Assembly (NCBI GenBank): GCA_964553795.1
Contig: CAZKMR010000001.1
Location: 19,230-83,229 of the forward strand
DNA: 64,000 bases
Source: an uncultured Bifidobacterium sp.
Lineage (GTDB): Bacteria > Verrucomicrobiota > Verrucomicrobiia > Limisphaerales > JADLHS01
Direction: 5' to 3'
In this document: one piece after another, positions 54,366 to 63,614 of the stretch
Numbering within the stretch: the stretch's first letter is position 1
How the letters are laid out: each line of letters opens with the position of its first letter
Notes under the pieces: model-generated
Seen by the model: the letters and a program-made list of their open reading frames with translations, nothing else
Database searches by the model: none
What the model was told of the DNA's origin: nothing
Made by a program: the position numbers and the translations under genes

Positions 54366-55355
54366 ATGGGCTTCTTCGATGCCATCCAAGCGAATCTGCT
54401 GACACCGGCAGTGTTGTTCTTTGCGCTCGGGTGCATTGCCGCTCTGGTGAAAAGCGATCTGCGGTTTCCCGAGCCGTTGTACATCACGCTGACGATCTAT
54501 CTGCTGGTGGCCATTGGATTCAAGGGCGGGGTGGCGATTTCGGAAGCCGGCCTGCGGGCCGTTTGGTTGCCATCGGTGGCGGCGTTGATTATCGGGACAT
54601 TGATTCCACTGTGGACGTATCCGTTGCTTCGCTACGTCGGAAAATTGTCGCCGGTAGATGCTGCGGCGATCGGCGGACACTACGGCTCAGTGAGTGCGGT
54701 GACGTTCATAGCCGCGACAAATTTTCTCAAGTCCGTTTCCGAGCCGCATGAGAATTATGCGTCGGCGTTTCTCGCGGTGATGGAATCGCCGGCGATAGTC
54801 ATCGCGGTGCTGCTGGGCAAGATGGCGACGCGCGACGCGAAGTCCGATTTCAAGGAAACGATGAAAGTGGCGCTGCATGAATCCATGCTGGGGCGCAGCG
54901 TGGTGTTGCTGGTCGGCGCGCTGATCATCGGATTTTTGTGTGGCAAACGCGGGGCGGAAACCACGGCGGGCTTGTTTGTGACGCCGTTCCAAGGCGTGCT
55001 CGCGTTGTTTCTTCTGGAGATGGGCACAATCGCCGCGCGACGTTTTCAGGATTTGCGCAAGGTCGGTTTGTTCCTGCTGGCGTTCGGCGTCGTGATGCCG
55101 CTAATTCACGGCATGATCGGCATCTGGCTCGGGAAAACGGTGGGCTTGAGTCTGGGCGGCGCGACGTTGTTTGGCGTGTTGACGGCGAGTGCGTCGTACA
55201 TAGCTGCTCCGGCGGCGATGCGGTTGTCGTTGCCGGAAGCGAATCCCACGCTGTACCTGACGGCGGCGTTGGCGATTACGTTCCCGTTCAACATCGCATT
55301 TGGCATTCCGATTTATTACGCGGTGGCGAAATGGCTGTTTGGAGGAAGCGTATGA
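54366..55355 (+). CDS. sbtA: SbtA-like sodium-dependent bicarbonate transporter family permease
   Basis: Polytopic protein of about 330 aa starting MGFFDAIQANLLTPAVLFFALGCIAALVKSDLRFPE, matching the Sbt_1/DUF897 pattern as I remember it. It starts 2 nt after purE. Confidence 0.75.
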   Translation: MGFFDAIQANLLTPAVLFFALGCIAALVKSDLRFPEPLYITLTIYLLVAIGFKGGVAISEAGLRAVWLPSVAALIIGTLIPLWTYPLLRYVGKLSPVDAAAIGGHYGSVSAVTFIAATNFLKSVSEPHENYASAFLAVMESPAIVIAVLLGKMATRDAKSDFKETMKVALHESMLGRSVVLLVGALIIGFLCGKRGAETTAGLFVTPFQGVLALFLLEMGTIAARRFQDLRKVGLFLLAFGVVMPLIHGMIGIWLGKTVGLSLGGATLFGVLTASASYIAAPAAMRLSLPEANPTLYLTAALAITFPFNIAFGIPIYYAVAKWLFGGSV

Positions 55356-55654
55356 CCATGTATCCGATGAAACTGGTGACGATCATTTGTGAAGCGCTGG
55401 CGCGGGAGCCGCTCACGCGATTTCTCGACAAGTCTGGGGCACACGGCTACACGTTGTTTCGCGTCGAAGGCACGGGCGCAAAAGGCTCGCGCGTCGCGGA
55501 TATGGAGGAGTTTGCCAACATCCAGGTGGAAGTCGTCGTCACGCCGGAAGTGGCGGAGCGATTGTTGGAGCAGCTGCAGAAGGAATTCTTCGCGCGCTTT
55601 GCCATGATCGCCTTCGAATCCGACGTGCGCGTGTTGCGGTCCAACAAATTCTAA
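55352..55654 (+). CDS. sbtB: PII-like regulator SbtB
   Basis: 100 aa. KLVTIICEALAREPLTRFLDKSGAHGYTLFRVEGTGAKGSR aligns by eye with cyanobacterial SbtB (KLVIVTE...ESGAKGYTV..GGKGSR). An ATGA overlap joins it to sbtA. Confidence 0.75.
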   Translation: MTMYPMKLVTIICEALAREPLTRFLDKSGAHGYTLFRVEGTGAKGSRVADMEEFANIQVEVVVTPEVAERLLEQLQKEFFARFAMIAFESDVRVLRSNKF

Positions 55655-56397: not shown

Positions 56398-56413
56398 CTT
56401 TACAACTGTAAAG
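56398..56413. promoter_or_regulatory. BlaI/CopY-type operator dyad CTTTACA-AC-TGTAAAG
   Basis: A perfect 7-bp inverted repeat containing TACAnnTGTA, 62 nt upstream of the blaI-like ATG. Confidence 0.5.
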
Positions 56414-56428
56414 ATTGCGCTTGACCGG

Positions 56429-56444
56429 CTTTACGGTTGTAGAG
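56429..56444. promoter_or_regulatory. Second, imperfect operator dyad CTTTAC-GGTT-GTAGAG
   Basis: It shares the CGGCTTTAC left half with the first dyad and sits 31 nt downstream of it. Confidence 0.4.
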
Positions 56445-56474
56445 ATGATGCGCCCGTCATCACCCAATTTTCAC

Positions 56475-56879
56475 ATGCCGCAAAAGCCGATTGAACTTAC
56501 CGAAGCCGAATGGACTGTCATCAAAGCCGTTTGGGAAGGCGAACCCTGCACCGCGCCCGCCATTCAGGAGAAGTTGTTTGCCGAAACGGCGTGGACTTAT
56601 TCCACGGTGCGGACGCTGATGGATCGCATGGTGACGAAAGGGTTGCTGGCGGCGGAGAAGGAAAAGAACGTGACGTTGTATCGCTCGGTGGTGACGCGCG
56701 CGCAGGCGCAGCGCGGGGAGCTGCTCTACGCGTTGAAACATGCGTTCAATGGCGCGCTCACGCCGATGGTGCAATGCCTGCTCGATACGAAGGAGATTAC
56801 CAGGTCTGAACTGGACCAACTCAAGCAACTCATCGCCGCGCACGAAAAGGGTCGCGGTAAAAGTGGGAGGAAATCATGA
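56475..56879 (+). CDS. BlaI/MecI/CopY-family transcriptional repressor
   Basis: Winged-helix pattern LTEAEWTVIKAVWE...WTYSTVRTLMDRMVTKGLL..EKEKNVTLYRSVV. An ATGA overlap joins it to the sensor gene. Confidence 0.85.
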   Translation: MPQKPIELTEAEWTVIKAVWEGEPCTAPAIQEKLFAETAWTYSTVRTLMDRMVTKGLLAAEKEKNVTLYRSVVTRAQAQRGELLYALKHAFNGALTPMVQCLLDTKEITRSELDQLKQLIAAHEKGRGKSGRKS

Positions 56880-59575
56880 ATGGCCTGTTGCGCTGGCTGG
56901 CGTCACCCGAATGGGCGCAACTCATCAGCGCATTTTTGCATTCGCTTTGGCTGGGAGCAGTCGTGGCGGTTGGTTTGGCGGTTGTGCTGCGGCGCGCCGT
57001 TAATCCCGTAATCCGCTATCTTTGCAGTCTGGCGGCTTTGGGACTGTTGCTGGGGTCTGGAGTGTTGGCGTGGGCGATTTTGAGCGCGCCGACTGTTCCA
57101 GTGGCAAATTCACCGCTGGTTGAGATAGTCGAGTCCGATCTTCCGAGTTCGGCCAGTGCGCCGACATCGTTTGATGTCGCCGATGAAGTGGTCGTAGTGG
57201 GACGGATGACTGTCCCCGAAGCGCCAACGCAATGGACAGCGTGGCTGGCGGGAATTTGGTTGCTGGGAGCTGCGGTGATGTTGCTGCGGGCGGGAATCAA
57301 GGTCGCGGGCGCTGAGCAACTGCGACGTTCCTGTCAGCCGCTGGCAGACGAACAAATGGCCGCATTGGTGGCCGAGGCGTGTCGCGCGGTAGGCCTGGCG
57401 CGACGCATCCGTGTGGCAGTCACGGAACGGCTGACTTCTCCGGCAGTAGTGGGGATAATTGTGCCGACCTTAATCCTGCCGCTATCGGTCTTCACGACAT
57501 TGACGCCGACCCAGATTCAGTTTGTCTTGCTGCACGAACTCGCGCACATCCGGCGCGGTGATTATCTCGCCAATTTATTCCAACTCTTTGCGGAAGCGTT
57601 GTTGTTCTTCAATCCTGCGGTGTGGTGGATCAGTCATCAAATCCGGCGCGAGCGCGAAGCGTGTTGCGATGCCCTGGCGATCCAATTGAGCGGCGCGCCG
57701 ACGGATTATGCAAAAACGTTAGTACAGGTGGCGGAAAACATTTTGCAATCTGCCCCCGCCGCAGCGCCTGCTTTTGGCGGCTACGGACAAGAAAACTCAT
57801 CGCTGGCGGATCGGGTGCAGCGATTGCTCGTTCCCGGCTATCGACCGACTCTGCACCTTACTTGGCGCGCAATGCTCGGCTCATTATTCGTGGGTGCCGT
57901 GATACTGGTTGCTTCCGCATACGGCACTCGAAACACGGTGGGGGCAATGATCTCATCTGCTCAACCGACAACAAATTATCCGCCGGTGTCAGACGTTTCA
58001 CTGATCACTGCTGCTGAAGGGAAACCTCGAACTCCTTCAAACGTGAACACAACCATACCCGTTCTGCGTGATTTACCACTCCTCAGCGGCCTGTTTACCA
58101 GCGAATCGCAAGTTCAACGCGAGGACGGTAAAGATGCATTCGGCATGAATGATTTGATGGTTGATAGCCAACAACGAAGCCACCAGCAATTTTGGTATCG
58201 GTCTGGCGATACCAATGTGCCGAAGCAATCCACCAACAGCGCCCCCACCGAGCCTTTGGCTACGCGCATGTTCAAAGTTGATATGGGGCAGATTTACTCC
58301 GCCTTAGGGTTGGCTTTGGATGGAACAAACAGCTTGAGTGCAACTAACTTGCATAATGCGGTTCGCGACTACTTCAGCAAGGCTGGAGTCAATCTAGATC
58401 CCCTGTTGGGCAAGAGCACCTACTTCAATTTGAGTCGGGGTGAATTGTGGGTTCGAGCTACACGCGAAGAACTGGACCTGGTTGAAGATATATTGCATTC
58501 GATGGCAGTTGCGACCGTGCGCGAATCCGAGATTTCAAATTCCGATACGCTCAAATCCCGAACTGAACATTCTGGTGGTCGCGCCATCGAATCGCTCCAA
58601 AACCAAGTCCCAACGAAAGCGTTAGTAACGCGAACTTTCAAAGCCAGTCCAGAGGCTTTAGCCGAAACTCTTGCGATAAGCGGATTTGAAACTGCGGATA
58701 ACGGGAAAACTAATCTTGCAGAAAGCTTGCGCGCTTTTCTGAAATCGATGGGCGTAGATCTTTCACTGCCCAAGTCTATGTACTATAACGAACGAGCGGG
58801 AGGACTTTTTGTTCGGGCGACGGCGGAAGATCTGGGCGTGATTGAGCAATTGCTTGAAGTCGTGAATCAACAATCGCAGCAAGTGAACATCAAGGCAATG
58901 TTTGTGGAAGTACCCGCGGATAAGTATGACGCGACAGAAATAGACCGCTTGCTGTTTTCCAATTTGAATAAAGCTGCAGGTGACAATGAACGTCAGTCGT
59001 TTGGCATTTTGACGGAGAGCGAATTTGCAAAGGTGCTCAAGAATCTCAGAGAGAGATTTCACGCTGAAATCGTGGCTGCTCCTCAGGTCACGACGTTGAG
59101 CGGCAGGCAGGCGCAAATCCAGATGGCAGACATCAAAACCATATTCACCGGCATGACGGCGGTAGTGACAAATGGGGTGACCAACTACGTCTATGAAACC
59201 GAAACCAGGCCTTTTGGACCAGTATTGGATTTGTTGCCGACGGTTTCTGGCGATGGAACTGCCGTTCAAATGACTGTAATTCCAAGCCTGACAGAGTTTG
59301 GGGGGTACACAAAATCAGGAGATAACCCATACTACGACTCCAATTATTATGACGCACTGCCAGTTCCCGGTGCCAATTCAGCAACGCTTCCGTTGCCGGT
59401 TTTTCGTGTTCGCAAGATGACGACGGTAACAACGGTTAAAGATGGTCAGACGTTGGTATTCGGAGGTTATGAAGCTAAGCCCCCTCTTCTTGGTTTATTC
59501 AAACGTGTGCGTTTCACCTTTGTAACGCCAACAATCCTTGATCCCGCAGGCAATCGTTTGAATCCCCCAAAATAA
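56876..59575 (+). CDS. BlaR1-type M56 sensor metalloprotease fused to two secretin-N-like repeats and a secretin core domain
   Basis: The N-terminus has TM helices and an HELAHIRRGDY (HExxH) M56 domain, followed by a further TM helix. Residues from about 462 form two repeats of about 85 aa (TRMFKV...WVRATREELDLVEDIL / TRTFKA...FVRATAEDLGVIEQLL). Residues 670-899 are secretin-like (VNIKAMFVEV..., APQVTTLSGRQAQIQ, VTTVKDGQTLVFGG, PLLGLF). Confidence 0.8.
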   Translation: MNGLLRWLASPEWAQLISAFLHSLWLGAVVAVGLAVVLRRAVNPVIRYLCSLAALGLLLGSGVLAWAILSAPTVPVANSPLVEIVESDLPSSASAPTSFDVADEVVVVGRMTVPEAPTQWTAWLAGIWLLGAAVMLLRAGIKVAGAEQLRRSCQPLADEQMAALVAEACRAVGLARRIRVAVTERLTSPAVVGIIVPTLILPLSVFTTLTPTQIQFVLLHELAHIRRGDYLANLFQLFAEALLFFNPAVWWISHQIRREREACCDALAIQLSGAPTDYAKTLVQVAENILQSAPAAAPAFGGYGQENSSLADRVQRLLVPGYRPTLHLTWRAMLGSLFVGAVILVASAYGTRNTVGAMISSAQPTTNYPPVSDVSLITAAEGKPRTPSNVNTTIPVLRDLPLLSGLFTSESQVQREDGKDAFGMNDLMVDSQQRSHQQFWYRSGDTNVPKQSTNSAPTEPLATRMFKVDMGQIYSALGLALDGTNSLSATNLHNAVRDYFSKAGVNLDPLLGKSTYFNLSRGELWVRATREELDLVEDILHSMAVATVRESEISNSDTLKSRTEHSGGRAIESLQNQVPTKALVTRTFKASPEALAETLAISGFETADNGKTNLAESLRAFLKSMGVDLSLPKSMYYNERAGGLFVRATAEDLGVIEQLLEVVNQQSQQVNIKAMFVEVPADKYDATEIDRLLFSNLNKAAGDNERQSFGILTESEFAKVLKNLRERFHAEIVAAPQVTTLSGRQAQIQMADIKTIFTGMTAVVTNGVTNYVYETETRPFGPVLDLLPTVSGDGTAVQMTVIPSLTEFGGYTKSGDNPYYDSNYYDALPVPGANSATLPLPVFRVRKMTTVTTVKDGQTLVFGGYEAKPPLLGLFKRVRFTFVTPTILDPAGNRLNPPK

Positions 59576-59737: not shown

Positions 59738-61288
59738 TCAACCCACGCCCATGCCGATGAGGAATTCGATGTTGCTCTTTGTCTTCTTCAGTTTGCCCAG
59801 CAGCAGTTCCATGGATTCCACGGGCGGCACGCCGGTGAGGGCGCGACGCAACAGCATGACCCGGGTGTATTCATCCGGGTGATAGAGCAATTCTTCTTTG
59901 CGCGTGCCGGAGCGTTCGATGTTGATCGAAGGGAAAATGCGGCGATCCACGAGCGAGCGGTCCAGGTGGACTTCCATGTTGCCCGTGCCTTTGAACTCTT
60001 CAAAGATGACTTCATCCATGCGGCTCCCGGTATCCACGAGCGCGGTCGCCATGATGGTGAGCGAGCCGCCTTCCTCAATGTTACGCGCCGCGCCGAAGAA
60101 GCGTTTCGGTTTGTGCAACGCATTCGCGTCCACACCACCGGAGAGAATCTTGCCGGAGTGTGGTTGCACGGTGTTGTAAGCGCGGGCCAGACGTGTGATG
60201 GAGTCGAGCAGGATGACGACGTCGCGCTTGTGTTCGACCATGCGCTTGGCTTTTTCGATGACCATTTCGGCCACCTGCACGTGACGTTCCGGCGGTTCGT
60301 CGAACGTGGACGAAATCACTTCCGCGCCCACGCAAGTGCGTTCCATGTCGGTGACTTCTTCGGGACGTTCGTCAATCAACAGGATGAACAAATACGTCTC
60401 CGGGTTGTTCTTGAGAATCGCGTTGGCGATTTTCTGCATCAACACCGTTTTGCCCGTGCGCGGCGGGGCGACGATCAAACCGCGGGTGCCTTTGCCGATG
60501 GGGCACACGAGGTCGAGCACGCGCATGTTCACTTCTTCAGGCGTCGTTTCGAGCAGCAAGCGCCGATTCGGGAAGAGCGGCGTGAGGTTTTCGAAATGCG
60601 TCTTGTCCTTTGCCTTGTCCGGTTCTTCGGCATCGACAGCTTCAACTTTAAGCAGCGCAAAGAATTTTTCTTTATCCTTCGGCGGACGGATCTGGCCGGC
60701 GATCAAATTGCCGGTCTGCAAATCGAAGCGCCGAATCTGCGACGGCGACACGTAAATGTCTTCCGGGCACGAGAGGTAATTGAAACTTTGCGAGCGGAGG
60801 AAGCCGTAGCCGTCGGGCAAAACTTCGAGCACGCCTTCGGAGAACAACACGCCGGCGCGTTCGGCGTTTTTCTGGAGGATGTGGAAAATGACCTCGTGCT
60901 TGCGCATCGTGCCGTAGTTTTCCACGCCCAAATCCTTGGCCATGTTGTTCAGGTCGTTCATCTGCATGCCCTGAAGTTTGGCGATGTTGAGCGAATGAAC
61001 GATCTTGTCGCGCTCACCGCGGCGGCCGTAATTCTGCTGTTGCGGCGATTCGGCGGGTTGCTCGGGAACGGAAGCTTCAATCGGGCGCGTGGGCGGTTGC
61101 AGCGGCGCATCCTCGTCCACCGGTGGGGGTGGCGGCGGGGGAGACGCTTTGGGCGCCGGCGCGGGCGAAGGGTCAACGGCTTCGGGGGCGAGTTCCGGCG
61201 GCGCGGGGGGAGGGGATAAATCGAGATCTTCGCTGGGCTTGGCTTTCGGTGCTTTTGCTTTGGCCTTCTTGGTAACGGCTTTTGCCAT
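59738..61288 (-). CDS. rho: Transcription termination factor Rho with a Lys/Pro/Ala-rich N-terminal extension of about 95 aa
   Basis: [15 protein letters not shown], Walker [35 protein letters not shown] and a C-terminal [11 protein letters not shown]. Confidence 0.95.
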
Positions 61289-61439: not shown

Positions 61440-63614
61440 TCAATACGGCAAGGGGAATCTCGCAGTCAGTTCGCGGACACGTTGACGCACCTTGGCGATA
61501 GCGTCAAGGTTTTTGATGTCCATCAACACTTCGCTGATCATGTCAGCGATGGCCGCCATTTCGGTCTCGTTCATGCCGCGCGTGGTGCAGGCTGGAGTGC
61601 CGAGCCGGATGCCGCTGGCCTGGAACGGAGAGCGGGTCTCAAACGGAATCGTGTTCTTGTTCGTGGTGATGCCGGCCTCGTCGAGCGCGAGCTGACATTC
61701 TTTGCCGGTCAGTCCTTTCGCGCCCACGTCCACGAGCATGAGATGGTTGTCCGTGCCACCGCTGATGAGGCGGAAGCCGTTGCGTTTCATGCCATCCGCC
61801 AAGGCGGCGGCATTGGTCACAATTTGTTGCTGATACGTTTTGAAATCCGGTTGCGCGGCTTCGTGAAAGCAAACGGCTTTGGCGGCGATGACGTGCATGA
61901 GCGGCCCGCCTTGAATGCCGGGGAACACCTGCGAATCAATTTCCTTCGCGTACTTTTCTTTGCACAAAATCAAACCACCGCGCGGGCCACGCAGGGTTTT
62001 ATGCGTGGTGGTAGTAACAAAGTCAGCATGCGCCATCGGACTGGGATGCACGCCGGCGGCAACGAGACCGGCGATGTGCGCGATGTCGGCGAGCAGATAC
62101 GCGCCGACTTCCCGGGCGATTTCGCCCATGCGCTTGAAATCAATGATGCGCGGATAGGCGCTGGCGCCGACCGTGATCATCTTCGGCTTGTGTTCGCGCG
62201 CCATCCGGGCGAGTTGATCGTAATCAATGCGCTCGTCCTCTTTGCACACGCCGTAGTGGACGATTTCGAAAAACTTTCCGGAAAAATTGGCTTTGTTGCC
62301 ATGAGTCAAATGGCCGCCGTGGCTCAGGTCCATGGTGAGCATGCGGTCGCCGGGTTTGAGGAACGCGAAATAAACGGCCATGTTCGCGCCGCTGCCGGAG
62401 TGCGGCTGCACGTTGGCGTGTTCGGCGCCGAAGAGTTGTTTGGCGCGATCTATCGCCAGTTGCTCGACGGTGTCCACGTTTTCGCAGCCGCCGTACCAGC
62501 GTTTCTTGGGATAGCCTTCGGCGTATTTGTTGGTGAGCACGGAACCTTGCGCTTCCATGACCGCCGGGCTGGTAAAGTTTTCGCTGGCGATGAGTTCGAT
62601 GTTTTCCTGCTGGCGCAGGCGTTCGCTTTCAATGGCGTTGGCGATTTCAGTGTCAACGCGGTTCAATCGGAGTTCAGGTGACATGGCTTTTTCTTCCATC
62701 TTGTGGACGCGCCGTTCGTGGCGGCCGCCCTCAAATTCAGTGTTCAAAAAGTTATCGAGAATCTGTTTGGCCAGATCGGCCGGGGTAAATTTCCCGGAGA
62801 GACACAGCACATTCGCATCATTGTGCTTGCGCGTCAGCAGGGCGGAGTCGGCGTCCGAAACCATCGCGGCGCGAATGCCTGGAACTTTATTCGCCGTGAT
62901 GCTCATGCCGATGCCAGTGGTGCAAACCAGCAACCCGACTTCGGCCTTATGTTCGGCCACGCTGTTGGCCACCAGCAACGCGTAATCCGGATAATCCACT
63001 GAGTCTTTGCCGTGCGTGCCGAAATCGTGAAAGGAAACGTTCCGTTCCCGCAGATACTTTTTCAGTTCTTCCTTGAGATCGAATCCGCCGTGGTCCGCAC
63101 CAATCGCGACGCGCGCCGTTTGCCCGGCGGCCACGGCCTTGATGGTCTGGGTGGTTTCGCCTTGATTGATGAAGCGCAACAACGAAGCAATGCCTTGTTC
63201 GATTTGATCGCGGCAATGCAAATAAACTTCGTACGAACCGCCGATCGGATCGCTGATGTCCTTCTCGAACGGATCGAGCGTGTCGTCGAACTCGCGCAAC
63301 AGGAATGTTTTTTCCGCCGCCTGCGGGTAGAGCAGGGCAATGGTGTCCACGTGGCTGTGCGTCATGCCGAGGATGTAATCGGCTTGCTTGACCATTTCGG
63401 CGGTGAGCATGCGACTGCGTTGCCGCGTAATATCTACGCCGATCTCGCGCATCGCCTGAACGGAATACGTGCTCGGGGCCTGCCCATCCACCGCGCCCAA
63501 TCCTGCGGACACCGCGCGATAGTCGCTGCGGCCCTGCGTGGCGTGGCGAAAGAGCGCCTCGGCCATGGGACTGCGGCAGATGTTACCCGTGCAAACGAAC
63601 AAGAAAGTTTTCAT
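61440..63614 (-). CDS. glyA: Tri-domain fusion: low-molecular-weight phosphatase + ribose-5-phosphate isomerase B + serine hydroxymethyltransferase
   Basis: Residues 1-150 carry CTGNICRS (CX5R-S) and DISDP. Residues about 167-306 carry [28 protein letters not shown] and GGRHERRV. Residues about 311-724 carry [26 protein letters not shown] and the PLP-lysine motif [13 protein letters not shown]. No stop codon separates the domains. Confidence 0.85.

Follow-up and report, generated by a model that had tools for sequence, protein, structure and literature searches.

A BlaI-type repressor paired with an M56 sensor protease that carries a secretin-derived, predicted periplasmic module in a verrucomicrobial genome

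The BlaR1-BlaI and MecR1-MecI systems of Staphylococcus aureus pair a winged-helix repressor of the Penicillinase_R family, acting at TACA/TGTA dyads over its own promoter, with a four-helix membrane protein that is encoded by an adjacent gene and that joins a cytoplasmic HExxH protease of family M56 to an extracytoplasmic C-terminal input domain. We analysed two genes with the same general plan, a blaI-like repressor gene and an 899-codon sensor gene, in a stretch of 64,000 nucleotides (hereafter the window; contig CAZKMR010000001.1 of assembly GCA_964553795.1) from a member of the Limisphaerales (Verrucomicrobiota). This pair differs from the staphylococcal systems in several respects. The sensor lacks a penicillin-binding (transpeptidase-like) domain and has instead, after a disordered linker, an input region of about 440 amino acids (aa) that is derived from a secretin. 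The repressor gene comes first and overlaps the sensor gene as ATGA, there is no divergent resistance gene, and the host is a Gram-negative-type verrucomicrobium. In addition, the repressor has C101-L102 at the position aligned to the N101-F102 cleavage site of S. aureus BlaI and MecI.

BlaIR-family pairs that do not sense β-lactams are known. In the atypical systems CenIR of Clostridioides difficile (PMC13492132) and PvmSR of Pseudomonas aeruginosa (bioRxiv 10.64898/2026.08.03.742534), as in the window, an M56 protein with a non-β-lactam sensor domain accompanies a BlaI-like repressor, and we place the window pair among them; its input differs from theirs in having a multimer-forming β-barrel fold. 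The C-terminal domains of M56 proteins are diverse: about 15,000 such proteins surveyed in 2026 fell into 254 architectures, with TonB_C, transpeptidase, M23, Plug and CarbopepD_reg_2 among the common C-termini, and secretin is absent from those common architectures, as is the word "secretin" from the paper (PMC13492132). Full-text searches of the literature that paired BlaR1 or M56 with secretin or Verrucomicrobia turned up no description of an M56-secretin fusion. Hundreds of such proteins are present in the databases, where automatic naming has given them generic titles, "beta-lactamase regulating signal transducer" joined with "secretin" at JGI and "M56 family metallopeptidase" at NCBI.

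On the input side, the nearest conceptual parallel is the STN domain of the FecR, PupR and FoxR anti-sigma factors. These are inner-membrane regulators with a periplasmic secretin-type N-domain and a regulated-proteolysis output, and STN and N-domains are protein-protein interaction or oligomerization modules (PMC11637429). FecR, PupR and FoxR have a single STN domain, a sigma/anti-sigma output and separate proteases, whereas the window sensor has a whole secretin core, a built-in protease and a repressor output. The module itself is built like PilQ (of the Amuc_1098 family), GspD, InvG, pIV and BfpB, with N-domains, barrel and gate. It differs from these secretins in lacking a signal peptide, in being fused behind a polytopic inner-membrane protease, in its truncated lip and loop, in lacking the TPR and Gly-rich N-terminal regions, and in being encoded outside any pilus or secretion operon. 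We propose, with a probability of roughly 0.6, that the pair is an autoregulated regulated-proteolysis switch of the BlaIR family, with a PilQ-derived input domain held in the periplasm by an inner-membrane tether.

Repressor, operators and sensor protease

The repressor gene (56475-56879, + strand; 134 aa), whose likeliest start codon is the ATG at 56475, was identified as BlaI-like in a preliminary description of the locus, and the database comparisons agree. The protein covers positions 1-114 of the 115 in the profile of Penicillinase_R, a family with a winged-helix DNA-binding domain and C-terminal dimerization helices (PF03965; Pfam E 2.2e-27), and aligns without a gap to residues 2-120 of MecI (1sd6; E 1.8e-11); the NCBIfam BlaI and CopY models also match, both under their cut-offs. 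Its stop codon overlaps the start of the sensor gene, and the ATGA noted previously can be read at 56876-56879. Among 14 related loci with an M56-secretin open reading frame (ORF), a blaI-like ORF lies upstream in 11, and the other three (L015, L022 and L029) begin at a contig end.

Upstream of the repressor gene, two dyads 31 nt apart had been described, one with a TACAnnTGTA core of the BlaI/MecI/CopY type and the other imperfect, and we find both, arranged around a promoter. Operator O1 (56398-56413, +) is the perfect dyad CTTTACAACTGTAAAG and lies 8 nt before the −35 box of a sigma-70-like promoter (56421-56449, +) that was detected by a consensus promoter scan and consists of TTGACC (56421), a 17-nt spacer and GATGAT (56449). 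Operator O2, CTTTACGGTTGTAGAG (56429-56444, +), lies within the promoter spacer and touches the −10 element. In the 64-kb window the core TACANNTGTA has a single occurrence, whereas shuffled sequences predict 0.04. Looser versions of the motif were otherwise not enriched at meaningful places in the window, and motif scans found no further operator elsewhere in it.

Alignment of the regions upstream of blaI showed that the layout of O1, TTGAC and an O2 overlapping the −10 element is common to 11 related loci, with diverged flanks. The shared order is the O1 consensus TTTACAnnTGTAAAGA, 5-6 nt, TTGAC without variation, 5-6 nt, TTTACAnnTGTAGAGA and an A/T-rich −10-like hexamer. The offset from O1 to O2, about three helical turns, is 31 bp in the window and in L017, L023, L073 and L083, and 30 bp in L046. 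Even the imperfection of O2, a 3′ half reading TGTAGAGA instead of TGTAAAGA, is kept in the related loci, which its overlap with the −10 element would explain. Such sites were found solely before blaI in 908 kb of related loci. This conserved layout and the restriction of the sites to blaI support the view that the dyads behave as genuine operators, at which the repressor would bind and repress its own gene by occluding the promoter, the mode known from bla and mec.

The sensor ORF (56876-59575, +) runs for 899 codons uninterrupted. Its first 360 residues (56876-57955, +), described previously as a polytopic BlaR1-type M56 protease, are recognized as such by Pfam, hydropathy, invariant columns and alignment with S. 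aureus BlaR1. Pfam Peptidase_M56 spans residues 24-314 (E 7.8e-38), the HELAH motif occupies residues 220-224, and H220, E221, H224 and E240 are invariant in an alignment of 62 homologues. S. aureus BlaR1 (8exp) aligns across residues 161-251, including the HExxH motif. Hydropathy gives four transmembrane helices at about residues 14-38, 45-70, 119-140 and 333-352 (segment limits up to 14-40, 45-77, 121-146 and 326-352) and an additional hydrophobic stretch within the M56 domain; the helices of an AlphaFold2 model coincide with the hydropathy segments. As in BlaR1, the loop at 71-118 is acidic, and those at 39-44 and 139-151 carry positive charge. We therefore predict the BlaR1 arrangement, with the protease in the cytoplasm and the C-terminal part outside, consistent with the earlier assignment of the C-terminal half as extracytoplasmic. 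No transpeptidase or β-lactamase family matches the sensor in Pfam or NCBIfam, and the NCBIfam model blaR1_generic matches only residues 120-292, with 85 bits against a cut-off of 400. Since it has no penicillin-binding domain, the sensor is not a β-lactam sensor.

It is conceivable that the pair does not signal at all, and that the M56 domain serves as a protease or chaperone in the membrane, with the attached secretin-like module or other proteins of the envelope as its substrates, while BlaI would regulate it merely in the way of any repressor. The lack of conservation of the BlaI cleavage-site residues would fit such a role, and M48/M56-like folds include quality-control proteases such as HtpX, to which the sensor has a weak NCBIfam match. 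We regard this as highly improbable: the sensor gene is tightly coupled in translation to blaI behind a conserved promoter with two operators, a combination that is the hallmark of BlaIR systems, and a BlaR1 topology puts the protease site in the cytoplasm, across the membrane from the secretin module.

The secretin-derived module and its outer-membrane elements

The fourth helix is followed by a linker (residues 361-457; 57956-58246, +) that is predicted to be disordered, with a predicted local distance difference test (pLDDT) score of about 30 over residues 362-455. From residue 460 to the C-terminus, the AlphaFold2 model, a single chain built on the 62-homologue alignment, is confident (pLDDT mostly 85-96). 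The preliminary description saw here two tandem repeats of about 85 aa resembling secretin N-domains, and this has stood up well. Residues 458-543 and 580-663 are 36% identical (E 4e-13), and each repeat is modelled as β-α-α-β-β-α with pLDDT >85 (residues 462-560 and 584-664), with a β-rich core after them. Repeat 1 (residues 458-545; 58247-58510, +) is recognized from the repeat similarity and its model (pLDDT 79-97). Repeat 2 (residues 580-664; 58613-58867, +) is recognized from its model, from Foldseek matches to XcpQ/GspD N-domains with probabilities of 0.8-0.97, and from a match to Pfam Secretin_N, the only one in the protein, over residues 615-668 (3e-4, below the gathering score). Thus, of the three family models that the preliminary description proposed for searching, Peptidase_M56 and Secretin match significantly and Secretin_N falls below its cut-off.

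The remainder of the protein (residues 665-899 and the stop codon; 58868-59575, +) is a secretin core, as had been claimed, by Pfam, NCBIfam, Foldseek and conservation. Failure to match secretin models was named in advance as a result that would count against this identification; Pfam Secretin (PF00263) matches residues 729-865 with an E-value of 7e-17, at 62 bits against a cut-off of 27.5. The best NCBIfam match is the Amuc_1098 type IV pilus secretin family (1.3e-26, in four stretches). All of the 35 best fold matches in the PDB are secretins (GspD, InvG, ExeD, PilQ, BfpB and pIV), with Foldseek E-values of 1e-13 to 1e-8 for GspD, InvG and PilQ; in a profile search of the PDB the best sequence match was BfpB (5.6e-20), and GspD scored 1.5e-14. 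Barrel and gate strands are kept. The best-conserved parts of the module are the N-domain, the barrel and the gate strand VTTLSGRQAQIQ, which is nearly invariant, and a conserved C-terminal TPTIIDPAGN strand is common to the module and secretins.

Two elements by which secretins engage the outer membrane are reduced. According to published work, the chief outer-membrane-spanning region is the β-lip, which follows the last N-domain and precedes the Pfam secretin domain; insertion requires a conserved amphipathic helical loop, which associates with the inner leaflet (PMC6532946, PMC10653833, PMC8134430). We compared the window protein with fused relatives and with stand-alone secretins of the same lineage (described below), anchoring all sequences on a profile of the stand-alone proteins; an independent measurement anchored by regular expressions agrees. 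The lip is 26 aa long in the window protein, a median of 24 aa (interquartile range 22-36) in fused relatives (n=75) and a median of 78 aa (74-91) in stand-alone secretins (n=55), and charged residues make up 38%, 13% and 8% of it, respectively. Anchoring of the lip is noisy for proteins with more than one core; for P0003 the two methods yield 32 and 112. The lip remnant in the window, KYDATEIDRLLFSNLNKAAGDNERQS, lies in a charged stretch at residues 681-707 (PADKYDATEIDRLLFSNLNKAAGDNER; 58916-58996, +), delimited by its profile-anchored length and the AlphaFold2 model, in which it forms a short helix and a loop, not a hairpin. The lip of a stand-alone PilQ model is itself of low confidence (pLDDT 34-52), so the comparison of lips rests on length and composition.

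The loop is shortened in the same way. The loop segment measures 14 aa in the window protein (EAKPPLLGLFKR), against a median of 26 aa in fused and 37 aa in stand-alone proteins, and the two strands beside it, which are 17 and 20 residues long in the stand-alone PilQ model, have only 9 and 12 in the model of the window protein. The remnant of the amphipathic helical loop is EAKPPLLGL at residues 868-876 (59477-59503, +), the motif VPxLGDIPxxGxLF being reduced to PPLLGLF. Of the 55 stand-alone proteins, 54 have a VPxLGDxP motif; 11 of the 75 fused ones do, and the window protein does not. In alignment with Vibrio cholerae GspD, the family profile skips ESKVPLLGDIP. Thus, the secretin module that had been called complete is not. 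Among 76 measurable fused representatives, 44 lack both lip and loop and about 5 have both. The latter include P0294 and P0309, in which a complete PilQ-like secretin, its lip reading LGFDWYLGN and its loop KDKVPMLGDLPLVGRLF, is fused to an M56 domain. Judged by these lengths and motifs, the fused family ranges from complete to reduced secretins, with the window protein at the reduced end.

The preliminary description offered two functions, a trans-envelope pore and a periplasmic sensor. In the former, the module would multimerize into a gated pore in the outer membrane, the state of which would be coupled to proteolysis of BlaI. Type IV secretion offers a precedent in VirB10/TraF, a single polypeptide that is anchored in the inner membrane, reaches or inserts in the outer membrane and acts as a sensor; this parallel bears on the pore alone, and its fold is unrelated, with no protease and no repressor partner. 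The conserved barrel and gate strands and the secretin fold matches are what such a pore would need, the disordered linker of about 100 residues is long enough to span the periplasm and reach the outer membrane, and P0294 and P0309 retain a complete secretin. Moreover, BfpB is a true lipoprotein secretin of the outer membrane although its lip is rather short and the consensus loop motif is missing from it; the motif is therefore dispensable, and its loss is not absolute proof of exclusion from the outer membrane. For the window protein, however, the pore is distinctly unlikely. Its lip is short and highly charged and is modelled as helix and loop, the strands flanking its loop segment are about 8 residues shorter on each side, and most measurable fused relatives share the loss of both elements. 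A lipobox is out of the question, since the protein starts with a polytopic membrane domain. We found no pilus or secretion genes and no pilotin in the window, where a similarity search with the three modules found only this locus, the six flanking genes were checked and most ORFs are unannotated. The pore survives as an idea for the relatives with a complete secretin, and the periplasmic sensor is the better supported function for the window protein.

The linker contains a short motif resembling the secretin loop, IPVLRDLPLLSGLF (residues 394-407; 58055-58096, +). It aligns to the C-terminal motif of pIV, not significantly. An early loop-like motif precedes the core in 13 of 71 fused relatives, in several of them inside a longer partial secretin piece. 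In the close relatives P0003, P0004, P0006, P0008 and P0012 the motif lies within a partial copy of the C-terminal third of the secretin domain, and the full C-terminal core of these proteins lacks the loop motif although the linker region has one. The orphan motif is probably a relic of a degraded upstream tandem secretin copy; alternatively, it may have some function near the inner membrane. Docking of the motif onto the secretin core found no support, the linker being modelled as disordered.

Relatives, origin and genomic setting

The joining of an M56 sensor to a secretin could in principle reflect two genes brought together by mis-assembly or a frameshift, as the preliminary description cautioned. 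A survey of the architecture, which it had also proposed, leaves this explanation hardly credible. A whole-protein search returned 673 relatives, most of the best 120 of which combine PF05569 with PF00263, are 700-1500 aa long and come from Verrucomicrobiota assemblies. An exhaustive search with residues 575-899 gave 319 clusters (50% identity) with E <= 1e-30; M56 is present in 90 of the 150 best, and these 90 are all from Verrucomicrobiota (Limisphaerales). A word-indexed search with the C-terminal part alone had returned mostly fragments and missed the fused proteins, which the exhaustive search corrected. The fusion recurs in dozens of independent assemblies as a continuous ORF, including two positional orthologues of the window sensor, P0005 (1110 aa) and P0012 (948 aa), in the order purE - carbonic anhydrase - blaI - sensor. 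One relative is split, into P0096 (M56) and P0121 (secretin) on the same 71,838-bp contig, with garbled, frameshift-like ends; these ORFs are, by their sequence, evidently a frameshifted or decaying copy of a fused gene.

The input side of these sensors is variable. P0005 and P0012 differ from the window sensor in the number and kind of their middle modules, their linkers differ in length and content, and paralogues with the same M56 module (55-70% identical) end in CarboxypepD_reg-type domains. Thus, the C-terminal part of the sensor behaves as an exchangeable, fast-evolving input module.

To trace the secretin part, we used a profile scan of species-representative genomes with the C-terminal part, which found at least 463 relatives; 80 loci were kept, all named as or resembling Verrucomicrobiota, with 14 M56 fusions and about 66 stand-alone secretins. 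The stand-alone protein has about 900-970 aa, with a signal-peptide-like start, TPR, an STN/N0-like domain, a Gly-rich linker, one N-domain and the core, and is 31-36% identical to the window module. At L036, the one locus examined, its gene follows pilM (PilM_2, 4e-36) and two small ORFs. From this pilM-led operon we conclude that the stand-alone gene is, on sequence grounds, the lineage's own type IV pilus secretin (PilQ). Fused and stand-alone genes occur together in at least 6 metagenome-assembled genomes (MAGs). Sequence and comparison thus support descent of the periplasmic module of the sensor from a copy of the lineage's type IV pilus secretin (PilQ, Amuc_1098 family).

This origin suggests a more specific form of the periplasmic sensor, in which the module would mimic PilQ, co-assembling with it or competing for its partners, such that perturbed assembly of the pilus or secretin would lead to cleavage of BlaI. 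Candidate partners are the alignment subcomplex, the pilus fibre and unassembled secretin monomers. The descent from a pilM-operon secretin, the presence of both gene types within the same genomes and the established role of STN and N-domains as interaction modules all speak for such mimicry, as does the presence in some relatives of the STN/N0-like domain of the stand-alone secretin, judged by eye. We nevertheless think it unlikely. The conserved neighbourhood, purE - carbonic anhydrase - blaI - sensor, has no linkage to pil genes, and no operator was found upstream of the stand-alone secretin genes at the 66 loci. The middle modules vary between positional orthologues, as would be expected of a sensor whose ligand diversifies more readily than of one with a fixed partner in a machine.

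Individual relatives show how far the mosaic extends. P0035 has two tandem secretin cores, the first with a lip and without the loop motif, the second with the loop motif and a short lip, and P0069 has a coiled-coil insert of about 200 aa within the core; P0006, P0009, P0010, P0014 and P0042 are among other members of this mosaic family with varied modules. Several fused members have an STN/N0-like domain and an LptA/OstA-like stretch, both judged by eye, and the number of N-domains in the fused family ranges from 1 to about 6, varying even between positional orthologues.

In the stand-alone PilQ genes of the Limisphaerales, the STN-like and N-domains are separated by long poly-Gly runs (GGGGGG...), at which many database gene calls start or break, giving 400-aa "GspD" fragments and a split ORF in L030 (examples are L005 and L030, and P0132, P0138 and P0161). 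This suggests that the GGC-rich repeat causes trouble in assembly or annotation. The titles of some assemblies ("uncultured Bifidobacterium", "Bifidobacteriaceae", Dongiaceae, Limnocylindrales, Acidoferrum and Angelobacter) conflict with their verrucomicrobial genes, at loci that include L001, L002, L015, L023, L027, L031 and L044. Their gene content (M56-secretin fusions and pilM-operon secretins) and their identity to Verrucomicrobiota MAGs indicate that the taxonomy of these assemblies is mislabelled.

The six flanking genes that were checked encode PurE, Sbt_1, P-II, carbonic anhydrase, Rho and a serine hydroxymethyltransferase (SHMT) fusion. Between purE and the β-carbonic anhydrase gene, at 54366-55654 (+), lie a gene for a Na+-dependent bicarbonate transporter (Sbt_1, 3.5e-117) and a small gene of the P-II family (1.1e-19), and in the positional orthologues L081 and L083 purE is followed directly by carbonic anhydrase; by this comparison the SbtA/SbtB-like pair looks like an insertion into the purE-carbonic anhydrase unit. 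The rho gene at 59741-61288 (−) encodes an N-terminal extension of about 100 aa, Lys/Ala-rich and then Pro/Ala-rich, before Rho_N (Pfam from residue 105). The ORF of 724 aa at 61443-63614 (−) is an unusual triple fusion of a low-molecular-weight phosphotyrosine phosphatase (LMWPc), ribose-5-phosphate isomerase B (LacAB_rpiB) and SHMT, each with a strong E-value.

The proposed switch and its significance

In the switch that we favour, a dimeric BlaI-type repressor is predicted to occupy both operators, around the −35 box and over the spacer and −10 element of its own promoter, and this occupancy would hold expression of blaI and the sensor gene low. The sensor would sit in the inner membrane through its four helices, with an intact M56 zinc-protease domain in the cytoplasm; past helix 4 the chain is predicted to be periplasmic, as disordered linker, two secretin N-domains and barrel/gate core. 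Given that the β-lip and the amphipathic helical loop are lost or truncated, the module would stay in the periplasm on its flexible inner-membrane tether and serve as the input domain. Helix 4 may then relay to the protease a periplasmic event that alters the conformation, occupancy or oligomeric state of the module. Candidate triggers are contact with components of pilus or secretin assembly, self-association into a ring, and another ligand. The activated protease would cleave BlaI, derepressing the operon and any other genes that bear the operator.

Several observations weigh against this proposal, in addition to the length of the linker, the example of BfpB and the few fused relatives that keep both lip and loop. 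Cleavage of BlaI by the sensor protease is assumed, and the repressor does not have the residues of the staphylococcal site; that site varies across the wider BlaI/MecI/CopY family, and we give the mismatch low weight accordingly. The only regulatory target visible is the operon itself. The M56 half of the AlphaFold2 model is poor (pLDDT 50-77) and gave no BlaR1 fold match in a Foldseek search of the PDB, so that the M56 homology rests on sequence. Finally, models of the monomer are silent on ring formation, which in secretins gives a 12-17-mer.

A bolder version, which we consider unlikely, arranges the family as an evolutionary series. It would lead from an M56 protein spanning two membranes with a complete PilQ-type secretin, as in P0294 and P0309, to a lip-less, tethered periplasmic ring, as in the window; in both forms 12-15 proteases would lie under the ring, and the state of the gate, whether open, closed or occupied, would be read out directly as proteolysis of the repressor. 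If true, this would be a hitherto undescribed mechanosensory checkpoint on pilus or secretin function.

BlaIR-family switches sense far more than β-lactams, and almost none of their non-canonical input domains is understood. The input domain proposed here has a fold known only as a multimeric outer-membrane channel, without the parts that contact the membrane. A module that still assembled into rings would amount to a naturally soluble secretin in the periplasm, useful for studies of secretin assembly and gating, and to an example of signalling by oligomerization of a built-in protease. With its conserved dual-operator promoter, the locus lends itself at once to reporter fusions and to a search for the regulon. 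If the switch reports on the pilus machine, it would represent a new envelope checkpoint in the Limisphaerales, a large and mostly uncultured clade.

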